Source of the DNA: a virus
Length of the DNA stretch: 64,000 nucleotides
Direction: 5' to 3' (one strand)
IMG/VR virus record: IMGVR_UViG_3300036817_000176
Coordinates: 21,947 to 85,946 of that record
Shown here: positions 1 to 60,534 of the stretch, piece by piece
Layout: every line of letters begins with the position of its first letter
Numbering within the stretch: position 1 is the stretch's first letter
Notes under the pieces: model-generated
Seen by the model: the letters and a program-made list of their open reading frames with translations, nothing else
What the model was told of the DNA's origin: nothing
Database searches by the model: none
Program-made: the position numbers and the translations under genes

Positions 1-461
1 AGTACCCGAACCTTTCCATCGCTGTCGATGGCGACGGCGTAGGGGCCGATACAGCGACGATTCTGGAGGAGGCCGGTCGGCAGGTGCAGCGCATCCGCTG
101 GGGCCAGCCGTGCTTCTCCCAGGAAGATAAGAAACGCTTCCTCAATAAACGCGCCTACGCGAACATCATGGCACGCGATGCCGTGCGAACCGGCCGCCTG
201 CGCCTCGACCGGCACGAGAAGACCCTCGATCAGGCCTCGCGCCTCCCGTGCAAGCTGAATGAGCAGGGGCTCTGGTGCATGATGCCGAAAGAGACAATGC
301 GCAAGGAGCTGGGCCTGCCGTCTCCTGACCGCTGGGATACGTATTGCTTCAGCTTTATGGCAGATTATGTCCCGGCAGAAATGGTCATTACCGGCGATAT
401 GGTCAAGGAGCGTGAGTCGGTGGCGGGATGGGCGCGGGATCTTGTTGCAGAGGATGTCTGA
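1..461 (+). CDS. pacB: Terminase large subunit PacB, C-terminal nuclease part (5'-truncated by window)
   Basis: Frame is open from base 3: IAVDGDGVG...VQRIRWG...SPDRWDTYCF, matching the recalled P1 PacB C-terminus; lies next to c1 as in P1. Confidence 0.9.
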   Translation, partial: YPNLSIAVDGDGVGADTATILEEAGRQVQRIRWGQPCFSQEDKKRFLNKRAYANIMARDAVRTGRLRLDRHEKTLDQASRLPCKLNEQGLWCMMPKETMRKELGLPSPDRWDTYCFSFMADYVPAEMVITGDMVKERESVAGWARDLVAEDV

Positions 462-2290: not shown

Positions 2291-2324
2291 TCAATTCGGA
2301 CTAATGGCAGTTATTCCGAATTGA
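2291..2324. other. lox-like recombination site, 13-8-13
   Basis: TCAATTCGGACTA-ATGGCAGT-TATTCCGAATTGA; arms are inverted with 1 mismatch; 61 bp upstream of cre. Confidence 0.9.
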
Positions 2325-2385
2325 CCCCATAATACAACAGCGCAACCGACGCGCCTAATAATTACAAAAATGTGGAAATTCCTTT

Positions 2386-3507
2386 ATGACGCAGCTCATC
2401 AATCCCGACGGCGGGAAATTGTTTCCGCCTGAAATCATAAGCAGCATAGATAGTTTGGATCTCGATGCCTTTTCGCCGGGCGACCTCGGGGACCTCATTC
2501 GCCGCGCGCGGCTGCATGGCCATCGTATCGAAAAGCACCCGCGTATCCAGGACGCCATCAAGCAGAACCTCGAGGCGTTTCAGTTCCGTGCCGGTCGTTA
2601 CTCCGAGCGCACGCTCGAAGCACTCACCGGTGCCTGGCAGCGCTACGTCACCTGGTGCAGCCAATATGATGACCGTTCGCCATTACCAGCTGATGTGGCC
2701 GACGTGGAAGCCTACCTGACCGAGCGTGCCGGTTCGGTGCATCGCAACACCCTGGCGATCGACCGCTGGGCCATCGGCCGGGTCAGCCGCGCCGCCGGTT
2801 GCCCGGATCCCACGACGGATGAGCGCCTGAAGGACACCTTCGCCTCCCTGGTGCGGGCTAAGGTCCAGGCGGAAGAAACTACCGAGCAGGCCTCGGCCTT
2901 GCGCGAGCTCCACCTCGATCAGCTGGTGGAGCTGTGGCGTGAATCGCCGCTGCTGGTCTGCAGGCGTGACCTGGCCCTGCTGGTGGTGGCGTATGAAACC
3001 CTGCTGCGCGCGTCGGAGGTGGCGAGGATCCGCTGTAGCCATATCCGCACCGGCAGCGACGGTACCGCCATTCTGACCATCCCTATCACCAAGACTAATC
3101 ACTCCGGCGAACCGGACAAGGCGCCGCTGTCCCGGCAGGCCATGCGTCTGGTGCTGGACTATCTGGCCATGTGCAACCGCAAGCTGGAGGGGGATCATTA
3201 CCTGTTTGGCAAGGCGACGAAGCACAACAAGCCCGCCTATGTCAGCGGACCGCTGTCGGTCGATACGGTGGAGAACATCTTCGCTCGGGCCTGGGAGGCG
3301 CTGGAGCTGGAGACGCTGGGGATCCCGCGCTGGTCGGGTCACTCTGCCCGGGTCGGGGCCTCGCAGGACCTGGCGGCCGGAGGATATAACACACTGGAGA
3401 TCATGCAGGCCGGGCGCTGGACCAGTGAGCGGATGGTGATCCGCTACTGTCGTGACATTCTTGCCGGTGAATCTGCAATGGCCCGTCGCCGGGCTGGAAA
3501 ACTGTAG
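2386..3507 (+). CDS. cre: Cre-family tyrosine recombinase
   Basis: Catalytic motifs YETLLRASE (R), TKT (K), HSARVG (H-x-x-R), AGRW (W), VIRY (Y); Cre-like N-domain. Confidence 0.95.
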   Translation: MTQLINPDGGKLFPPEIISSIDSLDLDAFSPGDLGDLIRRARLHGHRIEKHPRIQDAIKQNLEAFQFRAGRYSERTLEALTGAWQRYVTWCSQYDDRSPLPADVADVEAYLTERAGSVHRNTLAIDRWAIGRVSRAAGCPDPTTDERLKDTFASLVRAKVQAEETTEQASALRELHLDQLVELWRESPLLVCRRDLALLVVAYETLLRASEVARIRCSHIRTGSDGTAILTIPITKTNHSGEPDKAPLSRQAMRLVLDYLAMCNRKLEGDHYLFGKATKHNKPAYVSGPLSVDTVENIFARAWEALELETLGIPRWSGHSARVGASQDLAAGGYNTLEIMQAGRWTSERMVIRYCRDILAGESAMARRRAGKL

Positions 3508-3565: not shown

Positions 3566-4567
3566 TCAGCCCATATAAATGGAAGGTATTGAACAAAATA
3601 CTTTACTATGACACTGGTAAACAGCATTCATGTTATAGCCAGCTAACTGTGAAAGTGCCTCTTCGTTATCTTCTTGAACATAAACATTTACGTTCTTATT
3701 CAGTTTTAAAAACGCCTCCATCACTTTCTCTTTATCCATGCCTGCTGGAGCTTTTGCTTCCATGAAACGAGTGACGTCTAATATGGCAAATTTTATAAAG
3801 TAATTGGCGTTTAGATTGAATGCCATCATTAGATTTCCATCGGCAGCAGCAGAATAATCAACGTAAGACCTGTCGCTTAATACCACCTTTTTATCGGGGT
3901 GAGCATCTGAAATGCCATAGATCGTAGCAGCCGTGCCGAGGCCTTTATTTTCAAAGAGCTCTCTTACCAGGTGTTCAAGTATTGTCTCGCCCCCTCCTAC
4001 ATCAATTAAAGATAGGAAGATAACTTTCATCCAGTTCAGGTATTGCTCCCGGGTAACATCAAAATCCCGGCAGATACGCTCTATCCCCCCGTCGTTCCTT
4101 TTCTCAAGCAACCGGTATTCTTCCAGCAACTGCTCCTGACTCGGATGATGATCAGCCAGCACGCCTATTGAGTTAAGGACCTTTTTAATATTGTAGGGGT
4201 TGCGGATGAAGTTAAGAAATTTCAGTCGCAGAACATCATTTAATTCTTCGAGAATATTTTCGTCATTGGCTTTAATTTTATCCAGAAGCGCAGATGTAGC
4301 AGAACCTATTTTAGATTCATATACTCCAAATGCACTTTCGAAATTCTTTCTCATCCCTTCATCAAGAAATTCAAATGTATATAAATCAATAAAGCTCAGG
4401 TTGCTTTGTATTCCAATCCCATTCACATTTTCCAGTTCAACTGTACATTTCTCACGGTCCTTTAAGACAAAAGAATATATTTTTTTGCCTTTGCCGGGAA
4501 TTGAGTTAAGTCTTTGTTCGACTTGTGATAAATAATGCTGATTCTTGGTTGCATCAATATAACTCAT
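3566..4567 (-). CDS. DUF4238-like protein, low-GC moron
   Basis: N-terminal NQHYLSQ, DLYTF and VLSD motifs; clearly AT-rich compared with flanks. Confidence 0.7.
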   Translation of the reverse strand: MSYIDATKNQHYLSQVEQRLNSIPGKGKKIYSFVLKDREKCTVELENVNGIGIQSNLSFIDLYTFEFLDEGMRKNFESAFGVYESKIGSATSALLDKIKANDENILEELNDVLRLKFLNFIRNPYNIKKVLNSIGVLADHHPSQEQLLEEYRLLEKRNDGGIERICRDFDVTREQYLNWMKVIFLSLIDVGGGETILEHLVRELFENKGLGTAATIYGISDAHPDKKVVLSDRSYVDYSAAADGNLMMAFNLNANYFIKFAILDVTRFMEAKAPAGMDKEKVMEAFLKLNKNVNVYVQEDNEEALSQLAGYNMNAVYQCHSKVFCSIPSIYMG

Positions 4568-49515: not shown

Positions 49516-50000
49516 ATGTGTGCTGGCGGGAAGATGCCCTCCAGCGCACACTTTTGAGGGCAATATTTACATCCTCTTCCCGCCGAACAGAACGTTAGCC
49601 AGTTCATGGCCAACGTTAGCTAATTCATGGAAACGGCCTTAAAAGGGCTTTATTTCGGGCGCGAACCGGCGTCCAGCAACTACGCGCCATGAATAGACGA
49701 ACATCCATCATGAATAGACTAACGCTGGAATGTTGGCTGGAGGATGTGTGCTGTAGGGAAGATTCCCTCCAGCACACATTTTAAGGGAAGGATTTATATG
49801 GCTCCCCGCCAGGCCTTGCCAGATGAGCGTTAACTTAATTCCGTCATTGACCGGCAGGATGTAAAAATTACCCTCGACAGCAACCAGACGACCCTTTTTG
49901 TGTGCGCTGGCGGGAAAAAGTGGACGGTGGAGGGAACAATCAGGGCAAAACCGGCATGTTCGGTGTGCGCTGCAGGGAAATTTCCCTCCAGCACCCACTA
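49515..50000. repeat. incA-like copy-control iterons, about 7 copies in both orientations
   Basis: GTGYGCTG..GGGAA copies near 49515, 49743, 49899, 49962, three followed by an inverted copy. Confidence 0.9.
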
Positions 50001-50585: not shown

Positions 50586-51008
50586 TTAACCCAGCTTGCT
50601 CTGAATAATCTCTTCCATGCCATCATCAACCAGTTCGTATGCGTAGGTATCGCCGTCCGGTAAATCAAGCTGGTGGCTTGCGGTGCGGATCTTGCCCTCT
50701 GCGAATCGTTCCTGTTGATACGCCCACGCCGCGCACAAGGTCAGGGCAGGGCTCGCCAGGGTGTAACGCTGCAGCGTGCCCAGCTCCAGAGCATTCCCCC
50801 GGATCTCGATGCCGCGCGCAGCCATCAGCGCCTTCAGTGGCCACCAGTACGGACCATAGCCACGATACTGGCGAGGATCTTTCTCCAGCACGCTCAGCAG
50901 CCCGGCCAGATAGCCGGTAATAAATTCCTCTTCGGTCCGGTCGGCCGTGGCTTCCGCCAGCAGCGGGGCCAGTTCCTCAGAGGTGGGGATCACGGTATCG
51001 GCGATCAT
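50586..51008 (-). CDS. ulx: Ulx-like protein
   Basis: ATGA-coupled to darB; YRGYGPYWWPLKALM. Confidence 0.8.
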   Translation of the reverse strand: MIADTVIPTSEELAPLLAEATADRTEEEFITGYLAGLLSVLEKDPRQYRGYGPYWWPLKALMAARGIEIRGNALELGTLQRYTLASPALTLCAAWAYQQERFAEGKIRTASHQLDLPDGDTYAYELVDDGMEEIIQSKLG

Positions 51009-54000
51009 TCTTCGGTTACTCCCAGTACGTTTGCGATTTCTTTCATGGATGCCGACGCGGGAATAAACCACCAGCCGCCCGGAAACTCATCTGACACCGA
51101 ATCCGCAAAGAACACAAGCCCACGCCCCTCGCCGAAAGCGGCCTTAATGTTCTCTTTCTTGTCGTAAAGCAGACCGTTCTTGCCCTGCTTGTCGAACAGG
51201 CCGATCACCTCACCCACATCCTTCTTAACCGCCGGACGCGTGCGCCAGCGCCCCCGGAACTGGTATTTGCTCGGCGACTGATTGATGGCCAGCGCGTTGC
51301 GGCGAACCAGCACCGTATCGAGCTGAATGTCACCGGCGCTGGTGGCCTCGACGGTGGCCTCGGCGACAACTTTAGCCTCCTGCAGCTGCTCCTGTTCGAC
51401 CGGCGTCGGTTCCGGTTTTTCCTCTTCCGGTGCGTCGCCCTTCAGCCAGGTCTCAAGCAGGTCCTGGTTCTTGTTACCGTAGGACCCGCCGTAGGTCACA
51501 TAGATGGCGTTGTCGAAGGCGGTGCGCAGGCCTGCTGCGGTGTTTTCTGACGGTGCTGCAGCGATACCGGGGGCCATCAGGTCAGCCACGGCAGACGGCA
51601 GATCAAACCCATCCTGGCGGACATACGGGCCTTCCTTCGCGTTGCGCAGTTCGCCTGCGAAGGTATAGCCATTGGCGCTGCGGTTTCTCGTGGCCATTTC
51701 GCGGACCCAGCTCAGGCGGATGACGCGAGTTTCACGGCTGGTATTCTGACGTTCCAGCTCGAAGCGGGCGGCCAGTTCGGCATCCTTGCGCGCCTGCGCG
51801 GCCCGTTTCGCCTCTTTAACCTCCGCGTCCAGTGTGTCTTCGCCGGTCTTAATGGCGGCTTCAAAGGCGGTACGGTTGCTCCACTCAGCAGGGATCGCTT
51901 TCTTCGCGGCCTTGCTGAAATAGTAGGAGGTCATATTATTCAGTTCATAGGACGGATCAGCGCGGTAGGCGGCGAGGGTGGAAGCCAGCCACTCGTTAAT
52001 CAGCTGTTCCGGCGCCGTGTTGCCGTACCCCTCGACCGCCGCAACGATGTCGGTACCGTACAGAATGGTGAGCCAGTTCTTCGGTGCCTGGCTGGCATCG
52101 CCATACGTGCTGGTCGGGAACCGGCTACGATCGGCCAGCAGCCACTTCGCCAGATTTGCCTTCAGGGCGGCGTCGTTCACGTCCGGATAGACGATGCGGC
52201 TCAGCAAACCGGACTTCATCGGCTTGTCGCCGTAACGCTCAACGTAGTTCACCTCAAACGCGTTGCCGTCCTCACCATGCAACAGGAAATACGAATCGGT
52301 CAGCACCAGTGACCGGCTGATCAGGTGCTGGCTGAACTGACCGGCATCCAGTAGCCTCGTCGCGCGGGCGAGGGTAAGCGCCTCAGACATTTCTTTCCAG
52401 ACTTCCAGCTCAGACGGCGTATAGCTGACCTCATTCTGGAAGGACGCAACGTCATACCATACCTTGTTGTCCGGTTTTAGGGACACGCCTCGCAGGCGGT
52501 TCGGGACGTGGATCAGGGTGACCAGCGCCTGCTTGTCGTCAAAGTGCAATTTATCAGCCCGGGCAATGACGCCGGATGCCATCTGGTAGACGCGGCCCAC
52601 GCGCACGGTATGGATACCGTCGGTCAGGAACTCGTTACCCTTGTCCAGCATATCGGCTGGCATTTCCAGCAGGCCTTTTTTGATGGCCTCCTCGAGGGAT
52701 GGGCGCAGGCGCTTCAGGGCATCGGCGGCTTTAGCGTTACGCTCCGTGCGACGCTCCGCCATCAGCAGGTTTTTGCGCGCCTTCGCCAGTTCGGCCCGGT
52801 TGGCACTGACCTCTTTCTGGCTTTCTTTGGCCTGCTGTTTGAAGTATCCGGCCATGTAAGTATCGCCTTCGGAGTTGGCGAGGTTGCGGGTGAAGGCTTC
52901 GCTGTGAACGGTGACGTTCCGCTCAAAGCGGGCGACATCCTCTTTCAGCTTGCTGACGGTGGTCTGCAGTTCCGCCGGGTCACCGCTCTGATCGTGCGCG
53001 GCCTTCAGGTAGTTATGCAGGTCGATGCCAGCGCGGCGGCGGGCGGCTTCCTCGACCCGGGCGCGGGCCTTCTCCTGGTTCGCCTCGATGCGGGCGCGGC
53101 GTTCTTCCGGATCGGCGGCAAGGAGCAAGCTGGCCTCCATGGCGTCGTCGGCGTCGGCGTTCTTCATCTTCTCGGCGTCACTGGTGAACAGCTCATTCTG
53201 CCAGTTGGCCTTGCGCTTGAGCGTGTCCAGACGGAACTGGTCAAAGCTGCCTTTGCCCACGTAGTAATGCACGCGGACTTTCTTCTGTTTGGCACCCACG
53301 CGCGCGCCACGGCCGTTACGCTGCTTGATACTGGCCGGTGTCCACGGGAGGGTAAGGTGGTGAATGTCGGTGGTACCGTGATGCAGGTTGACGCCCACCT
53401 CGGCTTTTTTGTTGCAGATCAGGATGCGGATACGGCCGTCGTTGTAGGCCCCGGCGAACTTCTCCAGACTGGCCTGTTCGCCGTCCACACCTTTCTCGCT
53501 GACCGTCTTCGCGTTGATGATCCCGATCTCGCTTTCCGGGATGCCGAGGCTGTTCACGATGATGCGCTTCAGCTTCTCGTGCTGCGACTTCTCCTCGGTA
53601 AAGATAATCTGCTTACCGCCTTGCTCGTAGCCGGTCTTCAGGTTCTCCAGCATACGGGCGTACTTCGGCATCAGCGGGTGCGATACGTCGCTGGCGGTGA
53701 TGTCGAACTGGCTCAGACGGTTGATCACCTCCTGCTCGTACAGCTCAGGCACAACAAGCGTTACGGCGTGTTCGCTGGTGGTCACCCGGGCGTCCAGTTT
53801 GACCTGGTTCACTACCTTTTCGGCGTCCTCATCCTGCTTGTCGTCATCGCCACCGGCGAGCTTGATACTTTCCGGCAGGTCGGCCACCAGTTTGCCCACG
53901 GCGTCGGCATACTTCAGCGGGAACCGGAACGTCATGGTACGGCGGTACAGGTCCATATCCGTACATACGCGGTCCATGTCACGGATGATGGCAAAGGTGA

Positions 54001-57000
54001 AATCTTCCGGCTCGTCCTCGTTATCGGGGCCTTTCTCTTTCTTCTTGCTCAGGGCTTCAGCGCGCTGGCGCAGTTCTTCATAGACGACGGACTGCTCAGG
54101 GGTCATGTCTGACTCAGCCAGCAACTCCTCGAGATCCGGAATGGTGACAGTATGTGACACGTCTTTCGCGTCTTTGAGGTTCACCCAGCGGTGGAAAAGG
54201 GAGCGCAGCCCGGAGAGGTTTTTAAAGCCCACCAGGCCTTGCTTCAGCTCCACTTCGCCGGAGAGCTTCTGAACCATTACATCTTCAACTTCGCCGAACA
54301 CCTTGATGAAGTCGTCCACGTCGGCGATCCCCAGCTGCCCCCACTCCTCGTTATTCAGCAAGTGTGACAGCATGTTGAAGATATCGATCGGGGAGTTCAC
54401 GGTCGGGGTGGCGGTCAGCATAACCGGCCCACGGCCGTCGTACTTCTCGCGCATGTACGAGGACTTGACCGCCAGATCGATAGCGACCTTCGCGCTCGCC
54501 TGCGTCGGCAGGTAGGCCAGCTTGGAGGACTCGCGGCCCGCCTGGTAGCTGTTGCGGTAGTTGTGGGCTTCATCGACGATCAGACTGTCAAAGCCCATAT
54601 CCTCCCAGTACGGCACATCCAGCGCCTTATCGGTACCGGTGTTGCTGTGCTTCTCGGCGAATTTCTCTTTCTTCATCGCCTCGCGGTGGTTTTTGGCCAC
54701 GGCGAGGATCTTGCCGCCGCGCAGGCCTGCCGCTTCCATACGCTCCGCGTGGGCAACGATGGATTCCGGGCGCATGGGGATGGTGGCCAGTTGCTCTTTG
54801 GTCATCACCACAGTGTCATAGTTAGACTGCGGGATGGCGTTAAGACGCGCCTTAACCTCTTTCGTACCCAGGATTTTCAGCTTGTCGCGGGTCAGCTCCT
54901 CGCCGTTGGCGCCCAGGCGCGGGTTACCCTCGTCATCCCGTATGACTTCCTGCTCAATCTGGCCATCCTTGCCCATCACCGGCTCGACGCCGACAAAGAG
55001 CATTCGTGAGAAGGTGGCTTCGTCGTAGAACGTCTTACTTTCGTGGTACCAGTTCTCGAGCACGGCCAGCGGCACGGCGATCCCTGCACGTTTAGAGCGG
55101 CCCATCTGCCGGTTGTAGGCCACAAGCCCCAGCGCGGTCGTGGTTTTACCGAGCCCGGTACCGTAGGCCAGCACGCCGCGCCCGTCTTCAGACGCCCGTC
55201 GGATCCCCGAGCACTGATAGCCGAACGGCACGATACGCCCCGAGATACCGTCCAGCTGCAGGTCGGCGTCGCTATGGTCGAAGTTAACAAAGCCGTTAAA
55301 GCTGTCGTTATACAGGTCGGCCAGCTTCTCGATGTCATCATGCTGGCGTAGCCAGACAGCAAACTGGTCCTCGATGCCCTTGATACGTTCACGGTACGCG
55401 GCCGCACCGGCGGCATCACCCGAGCGGACGGTCACGCCGTTGAGGTAGTTCTCGAGCTGGCGCTCGAATTGCTCGTTGGCGTTGCTGCGCTTCTTACCGT
55501 CACGCACACCGTAGCCGCTCCAGACGCCATCGCTGCCCTGATACTCCTTGTCCTCCACCATGTCGCCGTCGTCGCCGGTGGTGATTTTGGAATACTGGAT
55601 CTCGCTGTAGCCGCTCTCTTTCAGGAACTCGAGCACGTAGCTGCGCGGGACCCATTTGGCGGCCATGGTCATTTCGATGTCATCGACTTTGGCCCGGAAC
55701 CGGCGGCGCTCGATCTCATCCAGCTGGGCCTGATAGTTCGACAGGATGGCCGGGTCTTTCTCGTTACCCATGGCGTTGATCAGCTTGCGACGGGTGGCAA
55801 CAATGTTCCCGCTGGTGGCGCGGTCCATTGGCATCAACATGCCGTCTGCAGTGATGGCCACGCCCGGGATCTTCGCCAGTTCGCCGAGCGTCTTACCCTC
55901 ATCGCCGCGGTACAGGTCGGCAAAATCGGACACATCGACCGGGTTAAGCTCGAGCTGGCTGAACAGATAGGCGACGGTCTGCGCGGCGCTGGTGTCGTCA
56001 AAGGCGTGAACCGGACCACGATCCAGCGTGCCGGACATCAGGGCGCTGAATTTGCCGTTTACGTCGGTTGCGGTCACAAAGGCGTTCCATGCACCTGCAG
56101 CGGCGCCACCGCCCAGGGTAGAGAGCTTGCGATCGGCGGCGGCCACCCCGAAAACTTTCATTTCGGCATTGGTCAGGTCGCGCAGTTCGGCGGCTGTTTC
56201 CGGTGGGATAACGCCGGTTTCGTTGACCTCGCCCAGCATTCCCTGGATGCGATGGCCAATCAGCGCCCCGCGCACGATACGGGCGCGATGCTCGGCCGGT
56301 TGCGCGTTGGCCAGACGGATGGCATCAGCAACGATCCCATGCGTCGCGTCCGGGAAGTCGCGGTGAACGGCCATCAGTTGTGTGTGGCTCAGCTCCAGCG
56401 CATTCAGCGGGGACTGGTCCATCATGGTGTAGAGCTGGCGCAGCGAACTGGCCCCGTACACTTCCGCGCTGATAGTGTCACCGTCGCTGGCCACCGAAGA
56501 GGTGGAGCTCTGCCATTCACCGTTAACCAGTCGGCGCCAGCGGCCATTGATCATGCGCTCATCGCCTTCGTCATACGTTGGTGTGACCGGTTCGGTCAGC
56601 TCCAGCGCCAGCCAGTCAATGCGTGATTCGAACTTGTGGGCCAGCCGGTCTTTGATCTGCGCGTTAGTAGTGGCACCTTTGTCCACGACGGTGCGGGCAA
56701 ATTTGCCGACGCCCTGCGTGGACTGTTCGCCGTGAATGAATCGCTTGCCCTCGGCCGTGTCAAACCACTTGCCGTTGATGAACGTGTCCCAGAGAACGTT
56801 GGCTTCAGCCAGCACGGCCTTTTTGCGACCGTTCACCAGCTCGGCCATGCCTTCCGGATGCTTGCGCATAACCAGAATGTCGGTGGCCGTATCGGTACCG
56901 TTATTGGAGAAGGTACCCGAGGGGAGACGATGGGCACCCAGGAACTCGGCCTTCAGGCTGATCTCGGCGCGCCACTTTTTGAACTTGGCGCCGCTGACGA

Positions 57001-57709
57001 TGCGCATTGGTACCACGACGGTCATCAGGGAGCCGGGCTTAATCTTGTCGAGGATACGCGAGACGAAATACTGATCCACGTACTTCATATGGGCGTATTC
57101 AGGATCAAGCGCCCCATAGCTGCCGCGCGTTTCACCAAATGGCACGTTACCCACGGCCCCGTCCCAGCTGTTGTCTTCGGCGCTCACGGCCAGCGATTCG
57201 AATGACTTGTTAACCACCTTGTCTTCCGGGTGGAGGAGCTGGTTCACCTGCGAGCTGGTTTCATCGATCTCGGTGGCGGTCATCAGCGCACCGGCGGGCT
57301 TGGTACCGTGGAAAACACCGGCACCGGCGGACGGCTCCAGGTAGTTACCCGGGCCCTGTCCCTGGTTGGCCATCAGCTGCCAGATCCCCTCTGCCACCCA
57401 CTGGGGAGTGTAATACTCGTGGATACTGCCGCCGATGCCGCCCAGACCGGAATACTGGCGCAGGATAGTGCGATCTTCCTCGGTGAGCTGGCTGGCATCC
57501 GTGCCTACCCGGGCAAGAACTCCGAGCACGCGCTCGTTAGCCTCCCGGCGGGCGCGTTCTACCGATACGCCGTCTTCCTTCTCGATGCCGTACACGGCCC
57601 CGACCCGGCTGGCGGTCGGGAACAGGCGATCGTACTCTGCCAGGAGGCTGGTCAGGCTGCGTGCCTCCAGAATGGCAGATACCGCGCTTGCCACAGCGGT
57701 TATAGACAT
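51005..57709 (-). CDS. darB: DarB: N6-adenine methyltransferase plus SNF2-type helicase antirestriction protein
   Basis: EYYTP, LEPSAGAG, GNVPF; GLGKT, DEAH, LTATP, QRNGRGAR; 2234 aa. Confidence 0.96.
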   Translation of the reverse strand: MSITAVASAVSAILEARSLTSLLAEYDRLFPTASRVGAVYGIEKEDGVSVERARREANERVLGVLARVGTDASQLTEEDRTILRQYSGLGGIGGSIHEYYTPQWVAEGIWQLMANQGQGPGNYLEPSAGAGVFHGTKPAGALMTATEIDETSSQVNQLLHPEDKVVNKSFESLAVSAEDNSWDGAVGNVPFGETRGSYGALDPEYAHMKYVDQYFVSRILDKIKPGSLMTVVVPMRIVSGAKFKKWRAEISLKAEFLGAHRLPSGTFSNNGTDTATDILVMRKHPEGMAELVNGRKKAVLAEANVLWDTFINGKWFDTAEGKRFIHGEQSTQGVGKFARTVVDKGATTNAQIKDRLAHKFESRIDWLALELTEPVTPTYDEGDERMINGRWRRLVNGEWQSSTSSVASDGDTISAEVYGASSLRQLYTMMDQSPLNALELSHTQLMAVHRDFPDATHGIVADAIRLANAQPAEHRARIVRGALIGHRIQGMLGEVNETGVIPPETAAELRDLTNAEMKVFGVAAADRKLSTLGGGAAAGAWNAFVTATDVNGKFSALMSGTLDRGPVHAFDDTSAAQTVAYLFSQLELNPVDVSDFADLYRGDEGKTLGELAKIPGVAITADGMLMPMDRATSGNIVATRRKLINAMGNEKDPAILSNYQAQLDEIERRRFRAKVDDIEMTMAAKWVPRSYVLEFLKESGYSEIQYSKITTGDDGDMVEDKEYQGSDGVWSGYGVRDGKKRSNANEQFERQLENYLNGVTVRSGDAAGAAAYRERIKGIEDQFAVWLRQHDDIEKLADLYNDSFNGFVNFDHSDADLQLDGISGRIVPFGYQCSGIRRASEDGRGVLAYGTGLGKTTTALGLVAYNRQMGRSKRAGIAVPLAVLENWYHESKTFYDEATFSRMLFVGVEPVMGKDGQIEQEVIRDDEGNPRLGANGEELTRDKLKILGTKEVKARLNAIPQSNYDTVVMTKEQLATIPMRPESIVAHAERMEAAGLRGGKILAVAKNHREAMKKEKFAEKHSNTGTDKALDVPYWEDMGFDSLIVDEAHNYRNSYQAGRESSKLAYLPTQASAKVAIDLAVKSSYMREKYDGRGPVMLTATPTVNSPIDIFNMLSHLLNNEEWGQLGIADVDDFIKVFGEVEDVMVQKLSGEVELKQGLVGFKNLSGLRSLFHRWVNLKDAKDVSHTVTIPDLEELLAESDMTPEQSVVYEELRQRAEALSKKKEKGPDNEDEPEDFTFAIIRDMDRVCTDMDLYRRTMTFRFPLKYADAVGKLVADLPESIKLAGGDDDKQDEDAEKVVNQVKLDARVTTSEHAVTLVVPELYEQEVINRLSQFDITASDVSHPLMPKYARMLENLKTGYEQGGKQIIFTEEKSQHEKLKRIIVNSLGIPESEIGIINAKTVSEKGVDGEQASLEKFAGAYNDGRIRILICNKKAEVGVNLHHGTTDIHHLTLPWTPASIKQRNGRGARVGAKQKKVRVHYYVGKGSFDQFRLDTLKRKANWQNELFTSDAEKMKNADADDAMEASLLLAADPEERRARIEANQEKARARVEEAARRRAGIDLHNYLKAAHDQSGDPAELQTTVSKLKEDVARFERNVTVHSEAFTRNLANSEGDTYMAGYFKQQAKESQKEVSANRAELAKARKNLLMAERRTERNAKAADALKRLRPSLEEAIKKGLLEMPADMLDKGNEFLTDGIHTVRVGRVYQMASGVIARADKLHFDDKQALVTLIHVPNRLRGVSLKPDNKVWYDVASFQNEVSYTPSELEVWKEMSEALTLARATRLLDAGQFSQHLISRSLVLTDSYFLLHGEDGNAFEVNYVERYGDKPMKSGLLSRIVYPDVNDAALKANLAKWLLADRSRFPTSTYGDASQAPKNWLTILYGTDIVAAVEGYGNTAPEQLINEWLASTLAAYRADPSYELNNMTSYYFSKAAKKAIPAEWSNRTAFEAAIKTGEDTLDAEVKEAKRAAQARKDAELAARFELERQNTSRETRVIRLSWVREMATRNRSANGYTFAGELRNAKEGPYVRQDGFDLPSAVADLMAPGIAAAPSENTAAGLRTAFDNAIYVTYGGSYGNKNQDLLETWLKGDAPEEEKPEPTPVEQEQLQEAKVVAEATVEATSAGDIQLDTVLVRRNALAINQSPSKYQFRGRWRTRPAVKKDVGEVIGLFDKQGKNGLLYDKKENIKAAFGEGRGLVFFADSVSDEFPGGWWFIPASASMKEIANVLGVTEE

Positions 57710-57868: not shown

Positions 57869-59569
57869 ATGGCTGAAACTACGAAAGCAGATACGAATGC
57901 AGAAAAAGGGCTGGTGTCGCTGCTGCGCCAGGCCTTCTCCGGGTTTAACCCGGACGACGCGCAGGACCGTGGCATTTTGCTGCAGGGCGCTGGTGGCTAT
58001 CACCTTGGCAATCCGCTTATGGCAGACAGCCCCACCAGCCAGAATGGCACTTCGGTAATCGGTGAACAGGACTGGATGGGGGAGAAGAAACTCCCGACAG
58101 ACCGCTTCGCCAAATACGCCCTGCTGGAAGACATGATCACCGATCCGGTGCTGTCGGCCGCGCTCGATATGCACATATCACATGCGCTCAGCGTGGACAG
58201 CCTCACGGGCAACATCCTGACAATTGAGGCCAAAACCGACGATGCGAAAGAGATCGCCGCGTCGCTCATGGCCGAACTGGGGCCGATGCTTAACACCGGT
58301 CTGCCGAGCTGGGCCAAACTAATGGCCGCGTTCGGCGTTCACTACATCCGCCCGTACTGCGAGCAGGGCAAGGGCATCATCGACATCGAGTCCTCCTGGT
58401 ACACGATGGCTCACCAGATCCGCGAATACGTCCGTGGCGGTCGGCTGGCAGGCTTTACCGGCGAATATCTCAAGACCCCGGCCCGCCCGGGTGAGGTCCA
58501 GCTGGTGGAGCCGTGGCAACTGGTCGGTCTGAAGGTACCGTACTGGCAACCGTCCTTGTCTCTGGAGCCGAAGGGCACCAGCGGCGCGCGCTATTCGCTG
58601 TATGACGATATTCACCGGCGCAAACCGACCGAAACGCAGGACTACGGCACCAGCTTCCTCGAGTTTGCCTACAGCTCGTGGTGCGACCTCAATGACGCCA
58701 TCCGCAGCCTGAAAGGGAGCCGCTATAACGCGAGCCGTATCGATCGCTTCGTGGCGCTCGGCATGGACAACCTCGACCCGGCACGCGCCGCTCAGCTCCT
58801 CAATATCGTCGGTACCCAGATGCGTAAGGACGCAGAAGCGGCCGCGCGCAAGGGCAAGGCGAAAGGCCTTATTCCGACTGTATGGAACCAAATCATCCCG
58901 AACCTTTCCGGTAACAAGGGCGGCGTGACGATCGATACGCAAGTGGTCAGCCCGGATATCCAGCACATCGAAGACGTGATGTTTCACCTCAAGCGCATGG
59001 CATCGGCACTCGGCATTGACGTGTCCATGCTCGGCTGGGGCGACCTGATGTCCGGCGGCCTCGGTGACGGCGGTTTCTTCCGCACGTCCATTCAGGCGGC
59101 CATCCGCGCGAACTGGCTGCGTGTCGGCATCGTGCAGGCCGTCAACCGGCTGATCGATATTCACATGGCCAACAAATACGGGAAGGTCTTCGGTGCAGGC
59201 GAGCTGCGCCCCATCGAAATTAAATTCCACTCACTCAATACCGCCATCGAGGCCGAACAGGCCGAAGCCATGGAAACGCGCACCAACTACGCCATGGCCC
59301 TGACCACCGTCCTCGACACGATCGAGAACGGGCGCCTGGCCGGTTCGGACGCTTTCAAGGAGCTCGTGCTGACCGACGTGGTGCGCCTCGATCCCGAGAA
59401 GGCGGCAGTAATCATTAAAGACCTCGCAAAGGCCGCTAAAGACGCCGCTGAAAACGAGGAGAGCTTCATGGAGTCCGTTGGCTACAAGGGACCCGAGAAG
59501 GGCTTCCAGAGTTATCTGGAGAGCGTAATCAATAAACAACTCGTTAATCTGTTAGGAGAGACACCGTGA
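57869..59569 (+). CDS. prt: Portal protein
   Basis: 566 aa, divergent from darB; LSAALDMHISHAL and GGLGDGGFFRTSIQAA motifs. Confidence 0.88.
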   Translation: MAETTKADTNAEKGLVSLLRQAFSGFNPDDAQDRGILLQGAGGYHLGNPLMADSPTSQNGTSVIGEQDWMGEKKLPTDRFAKYALLEDMITDPVLSAALDMHISHALSVDSLTGNILTIEAKTDDAKEIAASLMAELGPMLNTGLPSWAKLMAAFGVHYIRPYCEQGKGIIDIESSWYTMAHQIREYVRGGRLAGFTGEYLKTPARPGEVQLVEPWQLVGLKVPYWQPSLSLEPKGTSGARYSLYDDIHRRKPTETQDYGTSFLEFAYSSWCDLNDAIRSLKGSRYNASRIDRFVALGMDNLDPARAAQLLNIVGTQMRKDAEAAARKGKAKGLIPTVWNQIIPNLSGNKGGVTIDTQVVSPDIQHIEDVMFHLKRMASALGIDVSMLGWGDLMSGGLGDGGFFRTSIQAAIRANWLRVGIVQAVNRLIDIHMANKYGKVFGAGELRPIEIKFHSLNTAIEAEQAEAMETRTNYAMALTTVLDTIENGRLAGSDAFKELVLTDVVRLDPEKAAVIIKDLAKAAKDAAENEESFMESVGYKGPEKGFQSYLESVINKQLVNLLGETP

Positions 59570-60534
59570 GACGCGTCGAAACCGCTATCAACATTCACAA
59601 AGAGGGGCGCTCAGGCCATAACGGGCGTCGCTATGTTCAGCATTCGGTCAGAGCCATGATCGACTCGGCCGCCACCCAGGAGGGGCTACGTCTGGGCGAG
59701 CTGTTCGGCTACTTTGGCCATACCGCCCGCACCCTGTCCGGCAAGATGAAACCGGATGAGCAGGAGGTCGTGATGGTTAACGGCAAGCCGGTCGTGATGC
59801 AGAACGTCCCCAGCAACCGGCTGGTGGATATCTCGCTCGATGACGACGGCACGCTGCATCACACGCAGGAGATCCTCGATACGCCGTCCGGCGGTCTGGT
59901 CTGCGCGATGATCGACAGCAACGCGGGCGGCTGGAGCTGGGCGGTGACCGGCCCGCGAAACAGCGCCGGTGACCACCCGCAAACCATGTACGGCTTTGAC
60001 TACGTGGCACAACCTAACTTCATCCCCCTGGTGCGCCAGGGCGCGATGCTGGACTCCGTGGGCGAAGACGTGATCACCCGTCTGGGCATGGACCGCGATG
60101 GCTACTGCGCGATGCTGGACAGCTGGGCGCAGGCGTCCGAGGCGCGCCATATTGAAGAGGCCAGCCTGTATGACATCATGATGCTGGACGGGATGCTGAT
60201 CGAGGAGCGTAACTCCTCGGCGCAGCTGAAGCGTGATCTGGAGGCGGCGAGGGAAGAGGCCCGCCAGGCGACAGAGGCCCGTCAGGAAGCGATGATGGAT
60301 GCGCTGGAGACTTACCCGGTGATGCTGACCAAAGAGCAGCGCCGCGCCATTGCCTCGATGGCCACGCCGGAGGATGCGCTGATCTTCCGCCAGTTCCTAG
60401 ATAGCCTGTCCCGTTCAGATCTGGGTAGCCTGCCGCTGGGCGGGAAACGCGAACCGCAGACGGCGGCGGTACCGAGTCAGTTCAGGGAGGTTCCGGGCGC
60501 GGTTGATTTTAATCACTCGCTCCGCTTGAGCTAA
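59566..60534 (+). CDS. pro: Prohead protease
   Basis: GELFGYFGH, HTQEILDT, GGWSWA and GFDYV motifs. Confidence 0.88.
   Translation: MRRVETAINIHKEGRSGHNGRRYVQHSVRAMIDSAATQEGLRLGELFGYFGHTARTLSGKMKPDEQEVVMVNGKPVVMQNVPSNRLVDISLDDDGTLHHTQEILDTPSGGLVCAMIDSNAGGWSWAVTGPRNSAGDHPQTMYGFDYVAQPNFIPLVRQGAMLDSVGEDVITRLGMDRDGYCAMLDSWAQASEARHIEEASLYDIMMLDGMLIEERNSSAQLKRDLEAAREEARQATEARQEAMMDALETYPVMLTKEQRRAIASMATPEDALIFRQFLDSLSRSDLGSLPLGGKREPQTAAVPSQFREVPGAVDFNHSLRLS

Follow-up and report, generated by a model that had tools for sequence, protein, structure and literature searches.

Cre-type recombinases and their target sites form a family with over a dozen characterised pairs, and many more have been catalogued. 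In phage P1, loxP is found about 4 kb from the pac site. The P1 gene order is pacA, pacB, c1, coi, imcBA, loxP, cra and cre, with c1, coi and imcBA on the minus strand. Cre residues K43, M44, R259, G263 and E266 shape loxP recognition (PMC4957104, together with established knowledge of Cre specificity variants). A second system, VCre/VloxP, is encoded by plasmid p0908 and VloxP has been validated experimentally (Suzuki & Nakayama 2011, PMC3082901). According to Jelicic et al. 2023 (PMC10250229), about 500 Cre-type pairs were predicted from NCBI nt; 17 were tested and eight were active. In that text, the sites of all active enzymes carry T at position 7 and (G/T)-A-(T/G)-A beside the spacer. 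It also reports that VCre, YR1 and YR6 cross-recombine, YR1 and YR6 being described as VCre-like. Some enzymes are said there to tolerate half-sites with up to 7 differences and others to be strict, cross-reactivity being hard to predict.

We analysed a 64,000-bp stretch of DNA, hereafter the window, comprising bases 21947-85946 of an 85,946-bp IMG/VR virus record. It encodes a 373-aa recombinase with a 34-bp lox-like palindrome upstream. The features of this region are listed in Table 1.

Table 1. Features at the left end of the window (coordinates are those of the window)
Feature	Position	Strand	Basis or remark
PacB-like large terminase gene, 3' end	1..461	+	501 aa; full gene at genome 20902-22407; PHROG terminase large subunit
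C1-like repressor candidate, 265 aa	511..1308	-	NCBIfam phage_rep_C1 and synteny; divergent, at the P1 c1 position
Complete 34-bp site, TCAATTCGGACTA-ATGGCAGT-TATTCCGAATTGA	2291-2324		61 bp between site end and recombinase ATG
Lox-like left 13-bp arm, TCAATTCGGACTA	2291..2303	+	String located in window
Lox-like 8-bp asymmetric spacer, ATGGCAGT	2304..2311	+	Presumed crossover region
Lox-like right 13-bp arm, TATTCCGAATTGA	2312..2324	+	12/13 match to left arm
Weak sigma-70-like promoter match (ATGGCA, 18 nt, CATAAT)	2304..2333	+	9/12; overlaps spacer and right arm
Second conserved island, CCGACGCGCCTAA, also read as CYGACGCGCCYAA	2346..2358	+	About 25 bp downstream of site, before ATG
Cre-type tyrosine recombinase gene, 373 aa	2386..3507	+	PF00589, Cre alignment, AF2/Foldseek

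The only Pfam domain in the 373-aa protein is PF00589 (E 8.6e-18). When PDB sequences were searched with phmmer, the best matches were all Cre (E 3e-35 to 4e-32), with residues 55-367 aligned to Cre 20-337. A preliminary description of this DNA had credited the protein with all catalytic residues. Consistent with this, R208, K236, H319, R322, W345 and Y354 align with Cre R173, K201, H289, R292, W315 and Y324. The six residues (R-K-H-R-W-Y) are invariant in a 40-sequence family alignment. An AlphaFold2 model made from this 40-member alignment has a mean pLDDT of 89.1. The top Foldseek matches to the model were all Cre or Cre variants (TMt 0.82-0.88), the best being Cre-DNA complexes. These best alignments have a target-normalised TM of 0.88 and an rmsd of 2.7-2.8 Å over about 320 columns; other tyrosine recombinase families reach a TM of at most 0.64. 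Across phmmer, AlphaFold2 and Foldseek, the protein has the two-domain architecture of Cre: an N-terminal helical DNA-binding domain and a catalytic domain, with no arm-binding domain. In pairwise comparisons with five relatives, dN/dS falls at 0.11-0.17, so the recombinase gene is under purifying selection. We conclude that the protein is, by alignment and predicted fold, a full-length Cre-type tyrosine recombinase.

Relative to Cre there is an N-terminal extension, residues 1-54 (window 2386-2550), with two predicted helices (pLDDT 72-92). Residues 12-54 are confidently predicted to be helical and have no counterpart in Cre crystal chains. The extension is common to the VCre clade.

The preliminary description had also reported an exact 13-8-13 site directly upstream of the gene. 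Both the location and the proximity to the recombinase were borne out. However, the arms are not exact copies. Read as its reverse complement, the right arm is TCAATTCGGAATA; it has A at position 11, where the left arm has C. Including this asymmetry, the half-site shared by both arms is TCAATTCGGA[C/A]TA. There is a C at arm position 7, with ACTA (left) and AATA (right) as the inner ends. Across the 85,946-bp genome there are two 13-8-13 palindromes with no more than one mismatch; the mean in 40 block shuffles was 0.025. The 34-bp palindrome in the window is more than chance. No further half-sites with two or fewer mismatches were found across the whole genome, and the lox-like site is single-copy. 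A second, inverted copy was sought downstream of the recombinase gene and is absent from both the window element and pASP-135.

The other of these two palindromes, at window 49745, was considered as a lox site and rejected. This is a GC-rich hairpin repeat by a RepA-like gene and is not lox-like. Such repeats (GTGTGCTG..GGGAAGAT.CCCTCCAGC.CACA) occur at window 49517-49550, 49745-49778 and ~49899. They flank the region downstream of the RepA/'replication helicase'-like gene.

Two further elements lie between the spacer and the ATG. For the promoter-like match, 0.8 matches of 9/12 are expected by chance in the scanned region. Its position over the site is only a hint of autoregulation. In the second conserved island, GACGCGCC does not vary among six homologous upstream regions, whose proteins are 55-100% identical, and the DNA around it is unalignable. 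The island is possibly a 5' leader or regulatory element.

We inspected the element that carries the pair. The virus record has a 127-bp terminal direct repeat, indicating a circular assembly, and is 100% complete by CheckV. The circular 85.9-kb element has one site, one recombinase gene, and a P1-like gene set and synteny. Its PacB-like protein is 54% identical to P1 PacB (tblastn E 1.5e-171). Other P1 matches are DarB (40% over about 2,100 residues), the portal (39%) and DdrB (52%), and identities of 33-42% were obtained for baseplate, tube and further morphogenesis proteins. PHROG matches include PmgS-like, portal, tail and partition proteins, and a ParM-like partition gene is present. The 265-aa neighbour matches NCBIfam phage_rep_C1 weakly, at an E of 1.8e-5 far under the curated cutoff, and gave no tblastn match to P1 c1. 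The gene order is terminase-like (470 aa), PacB-like (501 aa), C1-like (265 aa, minus strand), two small ORFs (minus strand), the site and the recombinase. The site falls about 2-4 kb downstream of the terminase genes. PacB homologues were found in all five related records checked, p0908 among them. In the three closest records with both positions readable, PacB is within about 2 kb of the recombinase gene. Gene content and order indicate that the host is a circular, distantly P1-related phage-plasmid of about 86 kb.

Several other parts of the element were noted. A DarB-like gene of 2,234 aa (window 51005-57709, minus strand) is divergent from portal (57869-59569, plus) and pro-like (59566-60534, plus) genes. 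This layout is the darB, prt, pro arrangement of P1. At genome 1229-1978 (L008), outside the window, there is a second short PacB-like ORF of 249 aa, 30% identical to P1 PacB. This is a fragment of a terminase paralogue that accompanies the full PacB-like gene. A 333-aa ORF (window 3566-4567, minus strand) is convergent with the recombinase gene and has a much lower GC3, 0.38 compared with about 0.75 in the rest. Searches of Pfam, PHROG and NCBIfam gave no match to it at E<=0.001. In relatives, the slot downstream of the cre-like gene holds IS26 and tet(D) (pM17-63), an Abi-family gene (A. hydrophila YURI17), a DUF262 gene (pASP-135) or an IS3 element, with vapBC further downstream (pW17-2). 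Judged by these contents, the slot looks like a variable cargo or defence hotspot.

Relatives of the recombinase were identified by tblastn against plasmids. The closest are from Leclercia sp. W17 pW17-2 (93% identical) and L. adecarboxylata pM17-63 (89.5%), then an Aeromonas salmonicida AS3 plasmid (80%) and A. hydrophila pASP-135 (79%). The remaining Aeromonas plasmid recombinases are 44-52% identical. VCre, from p0908 of Vibrio sp. 0908, is 45.6% identical; Vika-like proteins of V. coralliilyticus plasmids are about 40% identical and SCre, from a Shewanella sp. ANA-3 plasmid, is 36% identical. Among phages, P1 Cre and D6 Dre are 31% and 30% identical, respectively. Pantoea-type Cre-like proteins are at 33-36%. 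Within IMG/VR, the recombinase of 3300034682 is 80% identical and another relative is 55% identical.

A maximum likelihood tree was inferred for 41 proteins, with Cre and Dre as the root; the set omits the many loci of P1-like and Pantoea/Rahnella type below about 36% identity. The window recombinase groups with the two Leclercia proteins (97% SH-aLRT). This group joins three Aeromonas/IMG/VR proteins (99%), within an Aeromonas clade of 13 (98%). The Aeromonas clade, the VCre clade (11 rows) and the Vika-like clade (5 rows) come together at 97%, with the branching order among them unsettled. SCre, Cre and Dre are outside this superclade.

The fetched loci of relatives were each scanned for 13-8-13 palindromes. 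In nearly every member of the VCre/Vika/SCre clade, the recombinase gene is preceded by a 13-8-13 site of its own at a distance of 5-770 bp. In most of these sites the spacer starts with A and finishes with T and the arms finish with ATA or AGA. Arm sequences are lineage-specific. Between 79% and 46% identity, the site data comprise one 55% IMG/VR relative and the 44-52% Aeromonas/Photobacterium plasmid homologues.

In the fetched loci and the collection scans, arms of the window type were restricted to recombinases of 79% identity or more (those of Leclercia and Aeromonas plasmids, and of one IMG/VR phage). The left arm is identical in pW17-2, pM17-63, A. salmonicida AS3 and IMG/VR 3300034682. 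The pW17-2 and pM17-63 sites each have one extra right-arm change, GAATTGA to GATTTGA. The AS3 and 3300034682 sites have arms identical to those in the window and the spacer ATGACAAT. The pASP-135 site is degenerate, with three arm mismatches. Four of the five close relatives retain the asymmetry at position 11, and in pASP-135 it is present among the three mismatches. The ACTA/AATA difference at the inner ends has been kept across about 20% protein divergence.

The degree of conservation can be set against the divergence of the genes. Between the window gene and the Aeromonas-type genes dS is 0.9-1.2, near saturation. At a dS of 0.9-1.0, the window shares all 26 arm bases with Aeromonas AS3 and with IMG/VR locus L013, and the flanks are unalignable. 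Comparing the window and Aeromonas-type 34-bp sites, the sole differences are two spacer bases. The site of the 55% IMG/VR relative is TTAATGTCGTACA ATGGCAAT TATTAGACATTGA. Spacers ATGACAAT (Aeromonas-type) and ATGGCAAT have the same orientation to the gene as the window spacer. The closest foreign half-sites, from the 55% relative, A. hydrophila YURI17 and Vibrio SCSIO 43186, have 4 differences from those of the window.

In pattern scans across the collection, the window arms turned up in the 80% IMG/VR relative and in one further contig, from a betaproteobacterial MAG. The MAG match was rejected as a chance one; it is without the right-arm end or a recombinase, and about 0.3 such matches are expected by chance. 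Scanning metagenome contigs for the site pattern gave no matches.

Positions equivalent to the Cre specificity residues were also compared. In the six-member clade of the window recombinase, the positions aligned with Cre 43, 44, 259, 263 and 266 hold E, A/S, D, N and A, apart from a single K at 263, the alignment being approximate at about 30% identity. The same positions in VCre are R, R, K, G and Y. Since both the aligned residues and the arms differ between the window clade and VCre, enzyme and site change together. The site data show that each recombinase lineage has one lineage-specific 13-8-13 site.

Two observations concern spacers. Those of the clade approximate to A-T-K-R-C-A-R-T and occur in either orientation relative to the gene. 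In the Vibrio europaeus p251-like locus L108 (1933-1966), the spacer of a Vika-clade relative (36% identical) is exactly ATGGCAGT, and the arms are unrelated.

VCre and the window recombinase share a superclade (97% SH-aLRT), are of similar length (380 and 373 aa) and both have an N-terminal extension relative to Cre. In the p0908 record (L003:1003-1036), VloxP is TCAATTTCTGAGA ACTGTCAT TCTCGGAAATTGA. Like the window site, it is a 13-8-13 unit upstream of the gene with one arm mismatch, and both pairs are on PacB-encoding P1-like elements. The preliminary description had pointed to a resemblance to VloxP in the arm ends and spacer, with different inner arms. The outer bases TCAATT/AATTGA are indeed common to both sites and the inner arms do differ. 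However, the spacers match at 7 of 8 bases on the opposite strand only. Because the VloxP spacer has to be reverse-complemented to match, the two sites lie in opposite orientations with respect to their genes. The arm differences lie at positions 7-12 and amount to 5-6 of 13 bases per half-site, the best pairing giving 5/13. In addition, VCre has an insertion of about 11 residues that is absent from the window clade. VCre and the 44-49% Aeromonas homologues also have a small ORF between site and gene, overlapping the recombinase start. The window clade does not, because the site is just 61 bp from the ATG. The small ORFs are at 1091-1474 in L003, 1750-2004 in L176 and 1708-2004 in L179. Hence, the pair is not VCre/VloxP: protein identity is 45.6%, the half-sites are beyond about 2 mismatches, and VCre is in a separate, well-supported clade.

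The other described systems are further removed. P1 Cre/loxP is alike in fold, catalytic residues, 13-8-13 architecture, genomic position and presumed roles. However, the proteins are 31% identical, the window arms are asymmetric at one position and are unrelated in sequence to the arms of loxP; the preliminary description had called them unlike loxP. Moreover, loxP is about 430 bp upstream of cre with cra between; the interval of 61 bp in the window has no cra-like ORF. The Vika/vox-like pair of the V. coralliilyticus pOCN014 relative is in the same broad clade, is plasmid-borne and has an upstream 13-8-13 site, but the proteins are about 40% identical and the half-sites differ from those of the window at 8 or more of 13 positions. 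SCre/SloxP, also Cre-type and of the same broad clade, was compared by protein alone (36% identity); the palindrome filter gave no convincing SloxP candidate in the ANA-3 locus. The earlier proposal of a recombinase/site pair of new specificity is supported at the level of a candidate: identity to a described pair, the outcome that would have undone it, was not found for Cre, Dre, VCre, SCre or the Vika-like protein (30-45.6% identity). YR1 to YR12 belong to the same family and were found by the same discovery logic; the window site lacks the T7 and (G/T)-A-(T/G)-A features that Jelicic et al. 2023 (PMC10250229) give for all active YR sites. As judged from these comparisons, the window pair is distinct from Cre/loxP, Dre/rox, VCre/VloxP, SCre and the Vika-like pair.

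A pair could be functional and still have a specificity that is not new, either by cross-reacting with VloxP or another lox-like site, or by being already contained in the set of Jelicic et al. 2023 (PMC10250229). The outer arm bases and seven spacer bases shared with VloxP allow for the former. So do the cross-recombination of VCre, YR1 and YR6 and the enzymes that accept half-sites with up to 7 differences. Against cross-reaction are the number of half-site differences from VloxP, the 45.6% protein identity, and aligned specificity residues that differ from those of VCre. Regarding prior description, the Leclercia and Aeromonas plasmids are public and the Jelicic pipeline scanned NCBI nt for such pairs. 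Hence, the window pair may be among the approximately 500 predicted or 17 tested candidates. However, C at position 7 and the ACTA/AATA inner ends depart from the features given for active sites, so the window site is probably not among the eight active YR sites in that account. Furthermore, neither arm string appears in the literature that could be searched, and nothing there links phage-plasmid Cre/lox to Aeromonas. We consider a specificity already known to be possible but rather doubtful. The same departure from the T7 and (G/T)-A-(T/G)-A pattern calls for caution about the activity of the window pair. The arm mismatch at position 11, the degenerate site of pASP-135 and the failure of about half of the predicted pairs in the Jelicic assay also count against a working pair.

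Alternatively, the palindrome might be only regulatory, serving as an operator, promoter or terminator of the immunity or recombinase genes, with the crossover site elsewhere or lost. The site does sit in a divergent intergenic region beside the C1-like gene, with a weak promoter-like match over it. However, the 13-8-13 geometry, mostly A...T spacers and lineage-specific arms recur in dozens of relatives regardless of neighbours, the homologous p0908 element is a proven recombination site (PMC3082901), and the genome has no other candidate site. We regard a solely regulatory palindrome as very improbable; a dual role, as crossover site and operator, is possible. Least credible of all is that the recombinase is an integrase and the palindrome an attP core for chromosomal integration. 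The name of the Pfam domain, 'Phage integrase', is in favour of this. However, the window element and its relatives are all circular, either plasmids or phage genomes, and they carry genes for replication and partition. The site itself is a plain 34-bp unit, close to symmetric, and no genuine second copy was found among 185,579 species (one genome per species) or in metagenome contigs. The fold resembles Cre over its whole length, without an arm-binding N-terminal domain, and the closest characterised relatives are simple resolvase-like systems.

All the defining Cre-type features that we examined are present: the catalytic set, the fold, the 34-bp site, and a single gene and site on a plasmid or phage-plasmid. 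Because the gene set, gene order and PacB proximity are P1-like, the mechanism of Cre/loxP is the best supported. We think it highly probable that the protein is a Cre-type simple tyrosine recombinase, that the 34-bp site is its cognate crossover site, and that the two have a role like that of Cre/loxP in P1. The palindrome is very probably the cognate site of the window recombinase. Catalysis on this site, the cleavage positions, the biological role and the specificity are what we infer by analogy with Cre. Briefly, each site would be occupied by two recombinase monomers, one per arm, and two sites would synapse as a tetramer. Strand exchange would take place inside the 8-bp spacer via Tyr354 phosphotyrosyl intermediates, with no accessory factors. 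Pairs of sites would arise by replication or recombination, in dimers, or from the terminal redundancy of packaged DNA. The expected outcome is that plasmid-prophage dimers would be converted to monomers before partition, and that terminally redundant virion DNA would be circularised after infection. Most likely, the pair would be a working Cre/lox analogue for dimer resolution and cyclization.

A bolder proposal is that the pair is active and fully orthogonal to Cre, Dre, VCre, SCre, Vika, Nigri, Panto and the YR enzymes. The conserved departures from the usual lox-like pattern (C at position 7, the ACTA/AATA asymmetry and Asp where Cre Arg259 aligns) would then reflect a different inner-arm recognition or a built-in bias in strand-exchange order. 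We put this forward tentatively and think it somewhat unlikely.

Orthogonal Cre-type pairs serve multiplexed genome engineering, and the window pair is a plausible candidate tool. Its arm sequence was not found with any described recombinase compared. Every natural pair adds data on how Cre-type enzymes read DNA. Here, a graded natural series with known sites (93, 90, 80, 79 and 55% identity, then VCre at about 46%) could help to map specificity determinants. The layout seen in P1 (pac, immunity region, lox and cre) persists across distant P1-like phage-plasmids of Leclercia, Aeromonas and Vibrio, in which the recombinase and its site diverge together.
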